Assembly: GCF_003231495.1 (NCBI RefSeq)
Contig: NZ_PQWO01000011.1
Span: 1 to 32,000 of the forward strand
Origin: Acaryochloris thomasi RCC1774
GTDB taxonomy: Bacteria; Cyanobacteriota; Cyanobacteriia; Thermosynechococcales; Thermosynechococcaceae
Reading direction: 5' to 3'
Length of the DNA: 32,000 bases
Shown piece by piece: positions 3,627-13,587 of this stretch. A model generated the notes under the pieces. That model was not told the DNA's origin, made no database searches, and worked only from the letters and a program-made list of their open reading frames with translations. The translations under genes were made by a program, and so were the position numbers. Every line of letters starts with the position of its first letter. The first letter of the stretch is position 1.

Positions 3627-3833
3627 GGAACCACCAGGACGTTGTGTATGGTCAACAGATCGTCATCAATGAATAGGAAAACTTAAGGTTTATCAACTCC
3701 ATATTTCTTGCTCGGGTAGCTCATGGGCTAGAGATAGCTTACAGATGAGAAAAGGTAATTTCTTTTACATTTCTGCTGGGATTATCACAATGTTGCAACT
3801 TTCTTGCTCGCCACCCAATCATTACGAACTGTC

Positions 3834-3944
3834 TCTCTCATTTTTCTCAGTCAACTCTACGAACATCCTCAGCAAGTTCATGGAGCACTCATAGAAACGG
3901 ATCATTTGCGTCTCAGGCAATCCTCGTAGATTGAAGTCATTGAG
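3834..3944 (+). promoter_or_regulatory. Conserved leader/operator element, copy 1 (paralogous to 6673-6788)
   Basis: Aligns in the same orientation with 6673-6788. Identical blocks: CTCTCATTT, TCTCAGTCAA, CATAGAAACGG, TCATTTG, GTCTCAG, GATTGAAGTCAT. Ends 17-20 nt before the downstream ATG. Three CTCAG cores (3846-3850, 3868-3872, 3912-3916). Confidence 0.6.
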
Positions 3945-3960
3945 GTTAGAGAACTAAATC

Positions 3961-4266
3961 ATGAACAGCAAAAAACATTTGATTAACACCGCTCTCGCTG
4001 GATTAGCCGTGGTAACCCTTGGTTTGACCACTGGCCGTGCTGCAGAAGCAAAGGCACTCGGCCACTCTATTGACGATCAACCTGAGACCCAACTCGTGGC
4101 TCTTAAGTTTAAAAAGTTCAAGAAGATTCATCATGCTCCCAAGAAGTTCAAGAAGGCCAAAAAGATCCATCACGGCCACGGTAAGTTTCATGGTCGTAAG
4201 AAGTTCGTTGGCCACAAAAAATTCGTTGGCCACAAAAAATTCCATGGCGGTCATCATTTTCGCTGA
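3961..4266 (+). CDS. Secreted His/Lys-rich low-complexity repeat protein
   Basis: Sec-type signal peptide (MNSKKHLINTALAGLAVVTLGLTTGRAAEA). The mature part is dominated by KKF/HH repeats (KFKKFKKIHHAPKKFKKAKKIHHGHGKFHGRKKFVGHKKFVGHKKFHGGHHFR). The overlapping ORFs 4003-4257(-) and 4037-4294(+) are alternative readings of the same repeat DNA. Confidence 0.6.
   Translation: MNSKKHLINTALAGLAVVTLGLTTGRAAEAKALGHSIDDQPETQLVALKFKKFKKIHHAPKKFKKAKKIHHGHGKFHGRKKFVGHKKFVGHKKFHGGHHFR
4204..4239 (+). repeat. Perfect 18-bp tandem duplication inside the His/Lys-rich gene
   Basis: TTCGTTGGCCACAAAAAA occurs at 4204-4221 and again at 4222-4239 (encodes FVGHKK twice). The related units AAGTTCAAGAAG...CATCA lie upstream. 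Confidence 0.95.
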
Positions 4267-4462
4267 TTCTCTGACGATGGTTAGGCGCTGGTGACCCCGC
4301 CAGGATGTTTTGGCCGCAACAGATTTAGAGGTGCTGGCATCATTAGAGTCTTGAGATGACTTCTACGATTTTCAAAACAAGATTTCATGTCTGATACTTA
4401 TCAAGAACCAGAGGACTGATTATGACTTTACTTAAGTCTGCGCTCCCTGCTCAGTTTTGACC

Positions 4463-6436
4463 TTAGATTTCATCGTCATAAAAGCGATAGAAGAAGTATC
4501 CGTCTTGAAAAGGTTGCTCATCTGTAACATGATGAATCACGCCTCGGTCAATCAATATTTGCCCTAGCTTGATGGCCTCTTGAGTCGAGACTCCCTGAGT
4601 ATGCATCAGCCAGTCAACGGCTTCACAACCCAAAAAACTTTTGGGATAGCTGCGGAGACGATATGTTCGATCTTTGATGTCAATTCCGTTTTGACTCCGC
4701 ATCTGATTTGTAAGCTGCTCTATATCAAGACCTTGAAGAGGGACACGACGTTTGGCCATCGCGCCTACCCCAATATCTTCCGGTGTCGATTCGAAAGTTG
4801 ATGAGCGAATCGTTCCTTGCCTACTGATTGCATTAGGGTAGTAAAGTTCGGTCGGTTGAGGCGTCTGCTGTTGAGTCCAGGTATCAACGAGCGCATTGAG
4901 CTGAGGTGACTGCACATGTAAATCGTGCTGATTGTAAGGAATACGGATTTTGTATTCTTGAAACCGCTTAACAATCAGATACTGCAGATCACTTTTCAAT
5001 AAAAACTGATTTTTGGGCATCCGTGTAGATACGACCAAAAGAAGATTTAGCCCACTGTCACCTAGATCTGTAAAGAGAACAAGGGGTTGCGGATAGCCCA
5101 ACACACCATCATGATGTTTGGCAATTCCTAGCAACACTTGGCGCACCTGATCAATATCGCTGCTGTAGGCTACCTTAACGGGGATAGTGACACGAACAAC
5201 CCGCTGGCCATAATTCCAATTAATCAGGCGCTGACTGACCAGCTCAGAATTAGGAACAAACACAGACACTTGATCGAGTCTACGAATTTGAGTACTGCGC
5301 GTTCCGATATGTTCAATAGTGCCAAAGAGACCATCTAGGTCAATAAAGTCACCCACCTGGATAGGCCGCTCTATGAGCAGAACTATCCCACTGACAAAAT
5401 TATTCACTAGACCCTGTAAGCCAAAGCCAATACCAACCCCTAGTACACTCGCAATAATGGCAAGCGAGCTAATATCAATACCCCAAGCTTGCAAGATACC
5501 CAGGCTTCCAATGCTAGTCAATCCATAGTGTGCGAGCGTGGCAATGGTCTCCTGTGGACCTTTCTCAATACCGGTAAAGCTTAATACTTGGGCCTTAAGG
5601 AAACGTACAATTGCGCCAACTAATAGCCACAGTCCAACAATAAGCCCTAATAAAAGGAGCATATCCGCCAGAGAGTAATTGTTCTCCCCTAGCTGAAATA
5701 GGGGAAACCAGAGGTTCTTTTCTAGGCTGTACCAGACTTGAAAGCGCCATCGGCGAACAAGGGGAAAGAGATCGGTCGTGTAGATAAGAGCCGTAACCCA
5801 AAGAATGCCTTTCAAGCCGAGGATGCCTAAAAATACTAGAGATTGACCCCGCCGAACTGAAGACTGTTGAGGATTTAGAGAAACATAGCGCAAGAGCAAG
5901 CGTTGCTTGAGGATGTTGACAACCATGTGAAGTGAGATCGTTGTCATCAAGGCTAAGGCTAACAGGCCGAATGCCTTGCGCTGGTATCCAGGGGTGCGTT
6001 CCTGCTGTGCTTTTTGGAGTGCTTTATTGAGCCAATCTTGCCAACGCTGCGCCTGCTCACGCGGCATTACTCCTGGGAGTAAATCGCGCTCAGTTACTGT
6101 TAGAAGATGCTGATCGTTGAGCCGTAGTGTCAGGAGATTATCTTGCCTAACAATCTGAACTCGGGGTGGTTCGGTGCTGGAATCATTGCTGAGACTATCC
6201 ATTAGCGACTGATTGACGGGATCGGCGCGATCTTTGGCTGAAAAGCCAGAGATACTATGCACCTGAAACAGAACTCGCCCATCAATCACAATCGGTGATG
6301 GCGTGGTCTGCACTCTGTTGGGGCTTGTCGCGTCCTGAGATCGTACTGCTACGGGCGTACAGATCAGCCCGAGTATTGAGGCTGACAGTATTGCTAAGAG
6401 GCAAAACTTCAGTCGTTTTTTCTGGCCATTGAGCAT
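4463..6436 (-). CDS. MscS-family mechanosensitive channel with N-terminal periplasmic region and C-terminal DEP domain
   Basis: Signal peptide, multiple TM helices and the MscS pore/beta-domain signature (GFGLQGLVNNFVSGIVLLIERPIQVGDFIDLDGLFGTIEHIGTRSTQIRRLDQVSVFVPNS). The last ~85 aa (IKDRTYRLRSYPKSFLGCEAVDWLMHTQGVSTQEAIKLGQILIDRGVIHHVTDEQPFQDGYFFYRF) match the DEP-domain pattern seen in pleckstrin and Dishevelled. Confidence 0.85.
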   Translation of the reverse strand: MLNGQKKRLKFCLLAILSASILGLICTPVAVRSQDATSPNRVQTTPSPIVIDGRVLFQVHSISGFSAKDRADPVNQSLMDSLSNDSSTEPPRVQIVRQDNLLTLRLNDQHLLTVTERDLLPGVMPREQAQRWQDWLNKALQKAQQERTPGYQRKAFGLLALALMTTISLHMVVNILKQRLLLRYVSLNPQQSSVRRGQSLVFLGILGLKGILWVTALIYTTDLFPLVRRWRFQVWYSLEKNLWFPLFQLGENNYSLADMLLLLGLIVGLWLLVGAIVRFLKAQVLSFTGIEKGPQETIATLAHYGLTSIGSLGILQAWGIDISSLAIIASVLGVGIGFGLQGLVNNFVSGIVLLIERPIQVGDFIDLDGLFGTIEHIGTRSTQIRRLDQVSVFVPNSELVSQRLINWNYGQRVVRVTIPVKVAYSSDIDQVRQVLLGIAKHHDGVLGYPQPLVLFTDLGDSGLNLLLVVSTRMPKNQFLLKSDLQYLIVKRFQEYKIRIPYNQHDLHVQSPQLNALVDTWTQQQTPQPTELYYPNAISRQGTIRSSTFESTPEDIGVGAMAKRRVPLQGLDIEQLTNQMRSQNGIDIKDRTYRLRSYPKSFLGCEAVDWLMHTQGVSTQEAIKLGQILIDRGVIHHVTDEQPFQDGYFFYRFYDDEI

Positions 6437-6672: not shown

Positions 6673-6788
6673 CCTCTCATTTCTCTCAGTCAAGGCGACC
6701 GAAACTTGCTGAGAGTTTGTCATTCGCACATAGAAACGGCTCATTTGGGTCTCAGTGAACCTTCGTCGATTGAAGTCATCATCGGAGG
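6673..6788 (+). promoter_or_regulatory. Conserved leader/operator element, copy 2 (paralogous to 3834-3944)
   Basis: Same identical blocks as copy 1. GGAGG at 6784-6788 lies 8 nt before the ATG at 6797. Contains an 11-bp bulged hairpin (CTCTCAG-T-CAAG 6683-6694 / CTTG-CTGAGAG 6705-6715) because the middle CTCAGCAAGTT module is inverted relative to copy 1. Confidence 0.6.
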
Positions 6789-6796
6789 CTTCAATA

Positions 6797-7033
6797 ATGC
6801 GGCACACACAAGAATTGACTATCGCACCTAATGAAATACTTGAAAACACCTTGGCTGTTACCCTGCCACTGTTGAATCAGACTGGGGTGCAAGAGCTAAT
6901 TTCATCCTATGGTGAGTTAGGTTCAGACCCAAGCTCAGACTACTTCACCACCCGCACGAAACATATCGCAGTGCTGTGCATCAATGGAGAGTGGTTTCAA
7001 ATTCGAGCGCATTGCTTTGAGCTGAAATTCTAG
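6797..7033 (+). CDS. Hypothetical 78-aa protein
   Basis: MRHTQELTIAPNEILENTL...WFQIRAHCFELKF. Preferred over the overlapping 6538-6849(-) ORF because it is preceded by GGAGG and by the conserved leader, in the same geometry as the 3961 gene. No family recognised. Confidence 0.35.
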   Translation: MRHTQELTIAPNEILENTLAVTLPLLNQTGVQELISSYGELGSDPSSDYFTTRTKHIAVLCINGEWFQIRAHCFELKF

Positions 7034-7200: not shown

Positions 7201-8094
7201 ATGCCAGATTTTACTCGCCGCCAAGTGATAACGACAGGTGCGATCGCAACCACAGGTTTCGCCAGTGCGATCGCTGCCAAAAGCGTTGCTGCAAACACAC
7301 TCAACCCACCGGAACCGCAAAGTGAGTCAGCTAAATCTAGCGGTAGATTCTCTGAGAAAGTTGTTCTGATTACGGGAGCAACCTCTGGCATTGGTGCGAC
7401 AACAGCTAAAGCGTTTGCAAAAGAAGGGGCAAAGGTTGCATTCAACGGACGTCGCGCGAACCTCGGACAACAGGTAGAAAAGGATATTCGCGCTCTTGGA
7501 GGAGAAGCCACTTATTTTCAGTCTGATGTGCGGGACCCTAAACAGGTAGAACAGTTTGTCAATGCCACTGTCGATAAATATGGCCGGTTGGATATCGCCT
7601 TCAACAATGCGGGTGTGTTTATGACGCCAGTAGAAATTCAAGAGATGGATCTCGATAACTATCGCAATATGATCGCCACCAATCTTGACGGTGTGTTCTA
7701 TGCGATGCGATATGAGCTGCCTGTTATGATTCAGCAAAACAGCGGCATTATTATCAATATGGCATCAGTGGCTGGACATCGGGGTTTCGCTAACACGCCA
7801 CATTACAACGCCAGCAAGCATGGCGTCATTGGTCTGACTAAAGCTGCTGCCAGCGCTAACGCAAAACGTAATATTCGCATCAATTCCATTTCTCCTTTAG
7901 CTGTTGATACCCCGATGCTGCAGCAGTCCTTCGAATATCAAGGATTGACATACGAGCAAATGGCTCCCAATTTTGTCACTCCCCGAATTATGAACACTGC
8001 GGAAATAGCGCAGGCTGTCATGTTCCTGGCTTTAGATGAAGCAACTTCTATTAATGGAATGGACTTAGACGTTACGGGTGGACAACTCGCATAA
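7201..8094 (+). CDS. SDR-family oxidoreductase with twin-arginine (Tat) signal peptide
   Basis: N-terminus MPDFTRRQVITTGAIATTGFASAIAAKS (RR motif, h-region, AxA). Followed by TGATSGIG Rossmann motif, NNAG, and catalytic S...YNASK. Confidence 0.85.
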   Translation: MPDFTRRQVITTGAIATTGFASAIAAKSVAANTLNPPEPQSESAKSSGRFSEKVVLITGATSGIGATTAKAFAKEGAKVAFNGRRANLGQQVEKDIRALGGEATYFQSDVRDPKQVEQFVNATVDKYGRLDIAFNNAGVFMTPVEIQEMDLDNYRNMIATNLDGVFYAMRYELPVMIQQNSGIIINMASVAGHRGFANTPHYNASKHGVIGLTKAAASANAKRNIRINSISPLAVDTPMLQQSFEYQGLTYEQMAPNFVTPRIMNTAEIAQAVMFLALDEATSINGMDLDVTGGQLA

Positions 8095-8236
8095 GTCTAA
8101 GAACTGGAGCACGAGCTGCAGCGTAGAAGAAGCATCTGAGAAAAACAAAAGTGGCTAGCATTCCAGCGGCAGAAGAACCGGCTGTGGACTCCAGATTTCA
8201 GCCAAAGTGAAATTTACACTAACAGAAGGCATCACC

Positions 8237-9118
8237 ATGACCGAATTCACACGACGACAAATCGTGACGACAGGGGTTGTCGCAGCCACGGGCCTAACGG
8301 CTGCAATTGCTACCGGAGAATTAACTGCCGCTTCCCCCAAATCAACTGAGTCAAGCGCTTCCACTCTTGGCAATCGCTTCACCAACAAAGTCATTCTGAT
8401 TACAGGAGCCACCTCCGGTATCGGCAAGGTCACCGCTAAGGCTTTTGCTCAAGAGGGCGGAAAAGTCTTTTTCTGCGGACGGCGAGCAAACTTGGGTCAA
8501 CAGGTAGAATCCGAGATTCGTGACAGCGGCGGCGAGGCTACTTATCTCCAGGCAGATGTTCGTAATGCCGAGCAGGTTAAGGCTTTTGTCGAAGGCTGCG
8601 TTGCGAAATATGGTCGCCTGGATGTGGCCTTCAATAATGCAGGAATTGACTATCCCCCAGATGCGATCGCAGATACCGACATTGCAGCATTTGACGACCT
8701 AATGAACACCAACGCACGGGGCGTCTTTCTCGGCATGAAATATGAGATTCCCCACTTACTGAAAACAAAAGGGGCCATCATCAACAACGCCAGTATCGGT
8801 GGTCACCGTGCCTTCCCAAATATTGTGGGCTATGGCGCGAGTAAAGCCGCCGTGATTCATATGACTAAAATGGCGGCTCAAGAATACGGGAAGGATATTC
8901 GCGTCAATGTTATTGCCCCTGGTGGTGTGGATACACCCATGTGGGAGCGGGTACAAAAAGACTGGGGCGTAACAGAAGAACAGCTTGTTTCCAGCTACCC
9001 CATGAAGCGAGTGGCGCAGCCGGAAGAGATTGCTAAGGCCGTGATATGGCTGGCGTCAGGTGCAGCCTCCTACGTTTCAGGAATGCGCTTCGATATCGAT
9101 GGCGGTGGCCTGGGCTAA
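8237..9118 (+). CDS. SDR-family oxidoreductase with Tat signal peptide (tandem paralogue)
   Basis: MTEFTRRQIVTTGVVAATGLTAAIATGE, then TGATSGIG, NNAG, YGASK. ATG 8237 is preferred (GAAGG 7 nt upstream) over GTG 8207. Collinear similarity to 7201-8094 throughout. Confidence 0.85.
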   Translation: MTEFTRRQIVTTGVVAATGLTAAIATGELTAASPKSTESSASTLGNRFTNKVILITGATSGIGKVTAKAFAQEGGKVFFCGRRANLGQQVESEIRDSGGEATYLQADVRNAEQVKAFVEGCVAKYGRLDVAFNNAGIDYPPDAIADTDIAAFDDLMNTNARGVFLGMKYEIPHLLKTKGAIINNASIGGHRAFPNIVGYGASKAAVIHMTKMAAQEYGKDIRVNVIAPGGVDTPMWERVQKDWGVTEEQLVSSYPMKRVAQPEEIAKAVIWLASGAASYVSGMRFDIDGGGLG

Positions 9119-13491: not shown

Positions 13492-13510
13492 TGGGCCTCG
13501 TTCTCGGTTT

Positions 13511-13556
13511 TGTACCAAACGTTCGGTACATTTAATCATACTGAACGTTTGGTACA
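13511..13556. promoter_or_regulatory. Two copies of a 20-bp pseudo-palindromic operator in the crp/tetR divergent intergenic region
   Basis: TGTACCAAACGTTCGGTACA (13511-13530; its reverse complement differs at 2 positions) and CATACTGAACGTTTGGTACA (13537-13556; 17/20 to the reverse complement of site 1). Located 20 nt from the crp start and 32 nt from the tetR start. Confidence 0.6.
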
Positions 13557-13587
13557 ATTTCAAATAAGTTTTCGAGCTGCTTTGTCT

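Follow-up and report, generated by a model that had tools for sequence, protein, structure and literature searches.

Results and Discussion

Two copies of a conserved element in the A. thomasi window

The window analysed here, a 32-kb stretch of the Acaryochloris thomasi RCC1774 genome, contains 27 HIP1 sites (GCGATCGC), consistent with a cyanobacterium. A ~110-nt element occurs twice within it, at 3834–3944 (copy A) and 6673–6788 (copy B); the element copies, their motifs and the genes that follow them all lie on the plus strand. Copy A precedes an ORF (3961–4266) for a 101-aa secreted His/Lys-rich repeat protein, with a signal peptide and KKF/HH repeats, and copy B precedes a 78-aa ORF (6797–7033). 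Between the copies, on the minus strand, lies a gene (4463–6436) for a 657-aa protein that joins an MscS core to a C-terminal DEP domain (PF00610, E 1e-22), an unusual fusion for a bacterium. Beyond copy B there are two tandem ORFs of ~300 aa (7201–8094 and 8207–9118) with the motif GATSGIG and alike at their N-termini, where FTRRQ... precedes a hydrophobic stretch (possible Tat signals); they look by eye like duplicated short-chain dehydrogenases. Further along, a near-perfect palindrome, TTGTACCAAACGTTCGGTA-N10-TACTGAACGTTTGGTACAA (13510–13557, 19-nt arms, 95% complementary), sits at the overlap of two opposite-strand ORFs and resembles the operator of a dimeric repressor.

MAFFT aligned the two copies in the same orientation without gaps at ~72–80% identity; the core of the element is 72% identical between them and the best block, of 51 nt, 86% identical. 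The blocks that are identical in both are CTCTCATTT, TCTCAGTCAA, CATAGAAACGG, TCATTTG, GTCTCAG and GATTGAAGTCAT. Two patterns derived from such blocks each matched only copies A and B in the 32-kb window when up to three mismatches were allowed, and neither matched anywhere in 100 dinucleotide shuffles. Copy A ends just 5′ of the ATG at 3961 and copy B just 5′ of that at 6797, each with GAGG/GGAGG before the start codon. The element, its shared blocks and its position before a ribosome-binding site are therefore as the preliminary description of this DNA had reported them. That description had also counted three CTCAG modules in each copy; copy A does have three in direct orientation, but copy B has two, its middle module being inverted. 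No other CTCAG cluster was found in the window, and separate HMMs of the 5′ and 3′ halves of the element recovered no additional copies there.

The element is conserved among related cyanobacteria

Outside the window, the element was found directly 5′ of every retrievable homologue of the His-rich gene, at nine further distinct loci in MAGs and metagenomes of related cyanobacteria (L001:6102-6236, L002:4363-4496, L003:9870-10003, L055:73-203, L056:1055-1181, L054:5181-5307, L057:3303-3444, L059:5868-6006 and L060:4896-5035; nhmmer, E 1e-19 to 1e-40 at all nine). Its conservation among orthologues thus extends well past the two copies that were first described. The alignment used throughout comprises these nine copies together with copies A and B (11 copies). 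In nhmmer searches copy A scored 131 bits over 3835–3960, the full 5′ regulatory region of the His/Lys-rich gene, which aligns gaplessly with the 10 other copies; copy B scored 118 bits over 6674–6780, from the region of the first CTCAG boxes to ~2 nt past the transcription start proposed below. Pattern searches of genome and metagenome collections, in which the A. thomasi genome was not included, gave no match to the exact pattern AACGGNTCATTTGNGTCTCAG. The looser pattern ATAGAAANNNNTCAN{22,28}ATTGAAGTCA matched 48 loci, among which nhmmer recognised a true copy at L006 only, the same contig as L003; the rest were chance matches.

Conservation begins abruptly at ~3835, at the first CTCAG box in the information profile, and the DNA further 5′ is not alignable. 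Over 36 locus pairs the element averages 71% identity, compared with 75, 79 and 47% at codon positions 1, 2 and 3 of the adjacent gene, and the contrast with the third positions shows that the element is under purifying selection. It is constrained about as strongly as non-synonymous sites, with synonymous sites near saturation. None of the six frames holds a conserved ORF across the element, every frame being interrupted by stop codons in several copies, and conservation by codon phase (0.79/0.79/0.83) reveals no meaningful three-base periodicity. The element is functional non-coding sequence; as had been proposed, it is this 5′ region that is conserved, rather than a coding sequence that was duplicated.

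Both downstream genes trace to one operon

The His/Lys-rich family numbers 14 proteins among 5.8 billion, two of them further A. thomasi paralogues (C1752_09168 and C1752_14877), and is covered by no Pfam or NCBIfam family. Protein matches to 3961–4266 included no 100%-identical entry, though other A. thomasi proteins were present among them; the intact 101-aa gene therefore seems to be unannotated in the source record. At L060:5036-5273, as also at L061-L063, the ATG that follows the element lies ~64 nt upstream of a called 57-aa gene, with a resolvase gene after it, so the His-rich gene may be frameshifted there. At L001 and L057, which are syntenic, a Peptidase_M50 (site-2 protease) gene and the His-rich gene are divergently oriented. 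This arrangement, which is not kept at the other loci, could hint at regulated proteolysis or alternative sigma factor control.

A gene for a ~113-aa secreted partner protein follows the His-rich gene in the relatives. All that the window retains of it behind copy A is a 12-codon stub, MTLLKSALPAQF*, at 4422–4460, which blastn matched to the 5′ ends of L002:4930-5268 and L003:10453-10794 and which only 2 nt separate from the 3′ end of the MscS-DEP gene (4463–6436), convergent with it. The operon of copy A is thus also damaged, its partner gene being cut to 12 codons.

The ORF behind copy B is identical to the hypothetical protein C1752_03762 of A. thomasi RCC1774, and a word-indexed search returned no other proteins like it. 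Low-stringency BLAST of the DNA 3′ of copy B, however, matched L002:5363-5587 at 81% nucleotide identity. The first 75 codons of the 78-aa ORF share 79% amino acid identity with residues 1–75 of a 257-aa 2OG-Fe dioxygenase (L002:5363-6136), whose PF10014 domain spans residues 40–223. Past residue 75 C1752_03762 diverges and then stops, homology ending near 7018, and the remainder of the dioxygenase gene is nowhere in the window. C1752_03762 is a truncated 5′ fragment of this gene: it contains no complete PF10014 catalytic domain and has no Pfam match.

The gene order of L002 accounts for both genes of the window. There the element is followed by the His-rich gene (4491-4799), a gene for a 112-aa secreted protein (4930-5268) and the dioxygenase gene (5363-6136). 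Since the dioxygenase gene lies two genes downstream of the His-rich gene and behind the same element, both window genes trace to one operon. The genes behind the two copies had been described as unrelated, and from this a shared regulon had been argued; as the 78-aa fragment and the His-rich gene go back to one operon, they are not independent of each other, and this argument is not supported.

A phased array of boxes leads up to a promoter-like hexamer

The motifs of the element are most easily placed relative to a hexamer, TAGATT in copy A (3927–3932), which occupies the sole conserved TAnnnT place in the element. It reads TAGATT, TACATT, TAAATT or TAACTT in 10 of the 11 copies. Its third base, which varies between G, C and A, is the variable position expected of a -10 hexamer. 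Behind it stands an invariant GAA..CA, with the CA 7 nt downstream and the ATG 22 nt further, and GGAG/GAGG at normal distance from the start codon. A TAnnnT 5–9 nt before a purine start is what defines a sigma-70-type -10 site, and the hexamer has this arrangement, as judged from sequence alone. In copy A the stretch from 3939 to 3960 (conserved CATCGAGGTTGGAG...ATG) would then be a short 5′ UTR with a GAGG/AGAG Shine-Dalgarno sequence. A consensus scan found nothing like a TTGACA -35 site 16–18 nt 5′ of the hexamer, where ATTTGG/TTTGGG stands instead. The block CATAGAAA was considered as an alternative -10 site and rejected, TAnnnT occurring there in only 2 of 11 copies.

Upstream of the hexamer the CTCAG boxes start at 90, 81, 59 and 15 nt before it, with a CTCAG-like CATAG at 37 nt, and this geometry is the same in all copies. 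Box 0 lies 9 nt 5′ of box 1 in most other copies and is degenerate in copy A (CTCAT, 3837–3841). Box 1 (3846–3850), 81 nt before the hexamer, is part of a TCTCAG that is invariant in 11/11 copies; box 2 (3868–3872), 59 nt before it, follows 22 nt later. The nearly invariant CATAGAAA (3890–3897, 11 copies) carries the CATAG, 22 nt past box 2 and 22 nt before box 4. Box 4 itself (3912–3916), in which TCAG is invariant (11/11), starts 15 nt before the hexamer, within the putative promoter spacer. The spacing is therefore 9/22/22/22 bp, and four sites stand exactly 22 bp apart, about two helical turns. A repeated, helically phased motif whose primary sequence is conserved is the mark of an operator array, and the boxes have it. 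None of the 11 copies has an indel between the first box and the hexamer, though the stretches between blocks are freely substituted; the only indels of the family lie downstream of the inferred start.

The 11-copy profile also detected a diverged twelfth copy of nearly full element length (L002:2729-2848; 22.3 bits, with E 5.5e-7 in 16 kb). Boxes 0, 1 and 2 are retained in it at their 9- and 22-nt spacing, TACTCT, a TAnnnT, stands at the position of the hexamer, and 9 nt separate its end from the start codon of an unrelated 155-aa gene. Within the L002 MAG, one or more further genes may thus be served by the element. No further copies were found in 465 kb of related loci.

Conserved promoter-like sites 5′ of the element are absent from the family, and in L002 the stop codon of the preceding gene lies only ~44 nt 5′ of it. 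Copy A does have a promoter-like site upstream, TTTACA-16-CACAAT (3764–3791), with a 9/12 match. By eye, none of the sites for NtcA (GTA-N8-TAC), Fur/Zur, HLR1, the Pho-box or ECF-type sigma factors (AAC...CGT) was convincing. No regulator gene is conserved beside the loci. Literature on CTCAG boxes in cyanobacteria yielded no regulator, and that on A. thomasi nothing relevant.

Proposed function of the element

Taken together, these data lead us to favour, with moderate confidence, the view that the element is the promoter and upstream control region (~-105 to +22) of a lineage-specific operon. This operon encodes the secreted His/Lys-rich protein, its ~113-aa secreted partner and, in at least one relative, the 2OG-Fe dioxygenase, and is present in A. 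thomasi and a few related cyanobacteria. RNA polymerase would use the TAnATT hexamer (3927–3932) and start at the invariant A3939, giving a leader of ~22 nt with a GGAG/GAGG ribosome-binding site. With no usable -35 site, the promoter should depend on a putative DNA-binding regulator. Such a regulator may occupy the CTCAG boxes at 90, 81, 59 and 15 nt, the CATAG at 37 nt and the GATCATTTG block over the -35 position. The signal is possibly a metal, a link drawn only from the composition of the His-rich protein.

A wider claim can be put forward only tentatively. The CTCAG array could be the operator of an undescribed transcription factor (or, less likely, an unstructured leader RNA recognised by an RNA-binding protein) that controls, in a small marine cyanobacterial clade, a multi-copy family of secreted His/Lys-rich peptides together with one or more unrelated genes. 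It would then define a new, possibly metal- or envelope-stress-responsive regulon of unusual architecture, its four sites having a 22-bp period.

Evidence for and against a leader RNA

The preliminary description had left open whether the element acts as RNA or as a multi-site operator, and had matched it to none of the riboswitch classes that it considered. The latter finding holds against Rfam 15, which gave no match above gathering threshold in the window and none at the element copies in the nine related loci; between 3700 and 7000 the only match at E<10 was a chance snoRNA match outside the element. A c-di-GMP-I riboswitch in a related MAG, at L003:1707-1797 (RF01051; gathering score 35, observed 42.3 bits), is unrelated to the element. 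As to the former question, the promoter and operator reading is favoured, and an RNA or riboswitch has no structural support from RNAalifold, folding z-scores or helix controls.

In its most specific form, the case for RNA is that the element is a transcribed 5′ leader in which (U)CUCAG and CCCUCG pair with the purine-rich CGAGGUUGGAG and so sequester the Shine-Dalgarno sequence; alternatively, the leader could be a platform for an RNA-binding protein or a small RNA. We regard this as possible but doubtful. RNAalifold returned no consensus structure (-2.3 kcal/mol for 8 copies, -1.6 kcal/mol for 11) and 0 covarying pairs. Single-sequence folding of the whole leader was no better than that of shuffles in either window copy (z-scores +0.55 and -0.89, not significant). 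Hairpins drawn by hand around box 2, box 4 and CCUCG/CGAGG did not beat their controls and were not supported. Those at box 2 and box 4 had 41% and 68% of cells paired, and together 54.5% as drawn against 55.7% with the partner columns slid by +1. In the CCUCG/CGAGG hairpin 79% of cells are paired; none of its changes is compensatory, and the L056/L054/L059/L060 subgroup does not preserve it. There is no intrinsic terminator inside the element.

What speaks for an RNA lies at the 3′ end. In 10–11 of 11 copies the YCUC of box 4 can base-pair with the Shine-Dalgarno GAGR, and within this helix columns 90/133 form one covarying pair (UA 4, CG 4, UG 2). L002 can form a perfect 10-bp UUUGGUUCUC/GAGAACCAAA helix. 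Over the last ~60 nt folding is on average ~1 sd better than that of shuffles, with 8/11 copies beating mononucleotide shuffles. The covarying pair and the better 3′ folding mean that an RNA-level effect on the ribosome-binding site is conceivable. However, when UUUGGGUCUC (box 4) is paired with the ribosome-binding region in a long-range helix, 72.7% of cells form pairs; column shuffles give 71.1%, and the observed value is reached by 98 of 500 of them. Moreover, pyrimidine-rich CUC against purine-rich GAG gives complementarity from composition alone.

A poorly conserved promoter further 5′, such as the site at 3764–3791 before copy A, could drive transcription of the entire element, but no upstream promoter is conserved. 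Strict length conservation of the variable stretches would be unusual for RNA loops. The inverted box 2 of copy B, described below, keeps a double-stranded DNA site and destroys an RNA motif, and is counted for the DNA reading.

Junction and fate of copy B

Copy B is closest to the copy at L001 (76%) and not to copy A (72%), from which we conclude that A and B are old paralogues. Its similarity to the element runs through GAAGTCATC / ...GATTGAAGTCATC to 6780. After a junction at 6781–6783 similarity to the DNA upstream of L002:5363 takes over with GGAGGCTT (from 6784), so that 6781–6796 comprises the junction and then the ribosome-binding site of the dioxygenase gene. The switch between 6780 and 6784 indicates that a deletion joined the promoter region to the ribosome-binding site of a downstream gene of the operon, and the junction falls just past the inferred +1. 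Copy B is thus an old paralogue that a deletion fused, 2–5 nt past the proposed start, to the dioxygenase ribosome-binding site, and the dioxygenase gene behind it was truncated later.

The copy has also changed within the element. At 6703–6717 a 15-bp segment has been inverted in place. It contains box 2 and is flanked by AACT/AGTT, two short inverted arms; its sequence, AACTTGCTGAGAGTT, is the exact reverse complement of the AACTCTCAGCAAGTT, or close variant of it, that the other ten copies have. At the position of the hexamer (6766–6771) it reads TCGATT, the A at position 2 being lost, and it is the only copy of the 11 with no TAnnnT there. At otherwise invariant columns copy B has 7 private changes, against 0–4 elsewhere; they amount to four mutational events, the 15-bp inversion explaining 4 of the 7. 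With a mutated hexamer, an inverted box and a truncated gene behind it, copy B is probably a decaying relic.

It is unlikely that copy B is instead a working member of a regulon and the element a portable control module for the His-rich operon, the dioxygenase gene and the 155-aa gene of L002. A diverged full-length copy does precede that unrelated 155-aa gene, and copy B is still 72–76% identical to the other copies. Nevertheless, what follows copy B is a 75-codon fragment without the greater part of the PF10014 domain, no other copy is missing the hexamer A or has as many private changes, and the dioxygenase gene is an operon neighbour in L002 and not an independent recruit.

Mobile-element and coding origins

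The cassette of element and His-rich gene occurs in different genomic neighbourhoods, and at L054, L059 and L060 it adjoins integrase, resolvase or Tn3 transposase genes; the integrase and Tn3 transposase genes near L054 and L059 suggest that some copies may be on mobile DNA. That the element is itself a mobile-element terminus, or a site of recombination that moves with the cassette, is very improbable: it has no inverted partner downstream of any cassette, never varies in orientation or in distance from the start codon, and gave no matches in plasmid and viral collections other than the bases that the search pattern itself imposes. A MITE or other dispersed repeat was rejected as well, every copy lying in one orientation directly 5′ of a start codon, with no inverted partner and no others in 465 kb.

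The notion that the copies are relics of a decayed minus-strand gene (...DFN.R...ETQM.RFY...LTE.NER), for which the few stop codons of that frame in all copies speak, can practically be dismissed, since 4 of 8 copies have stops whose positions differ, no start codon is conserved in place, conservation lacks periodicity, a 103-aa minus-strand ORF over copy B has no Pfam match, and a relic would not stay 71% identical while adjacent third codon positions fell to 47%.

Implications

What appeared to be a riboswitch-like leader on two unrelated genes is better read as the promoter region of one operon, duplicated, fused and now partly decaying. The main argument for a regulon falls with this, shared control of unrelated genes being largely explained by operon history. 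What stays is a selected control region of ~125 bp with a precise motif geometry, in front of an orphan family of secreted His/Lys-rich proteins: a clean but narrow substrate for finding the regulator and the inducing signal. In addition, the annotation is corrected at two places, C1752_03762 being a gene fragment and the His-rich gene at 3961–4266 appearing to be unannotated.

Comparison with known systems

Like riboswitches and other structured leaders, the element is a conserved stretch of 110–130 nt immediately 5′ of the start codon of more than one gene; it differs from them in having no Rfam match, consensus fold, covariation or terminator. ROSE and fourU RNA thermometers are leaders that sequester the Shine-Dalgarno sequence, and the pyrimidine-rich CUC segments of the element can likewise pair with GAGG/GGAG. 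This pairing, however, is no better than in column shuffles, the hairpin is lost in one subgroup, and motifs specific to those families were not found. The history of copy B resembles promoter capture by deletion within an operon, a form of ordinary genome decay: the copy was joined to the ribosome-binding site of what is, in a relative, a more distal gene of the operon. The one unusual point is that the captured gene is itself truncated.

The closest parallel is with activator-dependent sigma-70 promoters that have phased upstream sites, such as the Pho-box arrays of PhoB, in which 22-bp units replace the -35 site. The element differs from these in that its 22-bp units have no 11-bp half-site pattern, the kind used by response regulators, that one box lies in the -10/-35 spacer, and that no regulator gene is linked to it. 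To our knowledge, its motif (CTCAG/CATAG with the blocks GATCATTTG and CAAGTTTG) matches no regulator box. In its layout it is otherwise alike: as in such promoters, there is a recognisable -10 but no -35 site, direct motifs extend at a 22-bp period to ~-100 and keep strict spacing to the -10, and a predicted short leader with a normal Shine-Dalgarno sequence follows.
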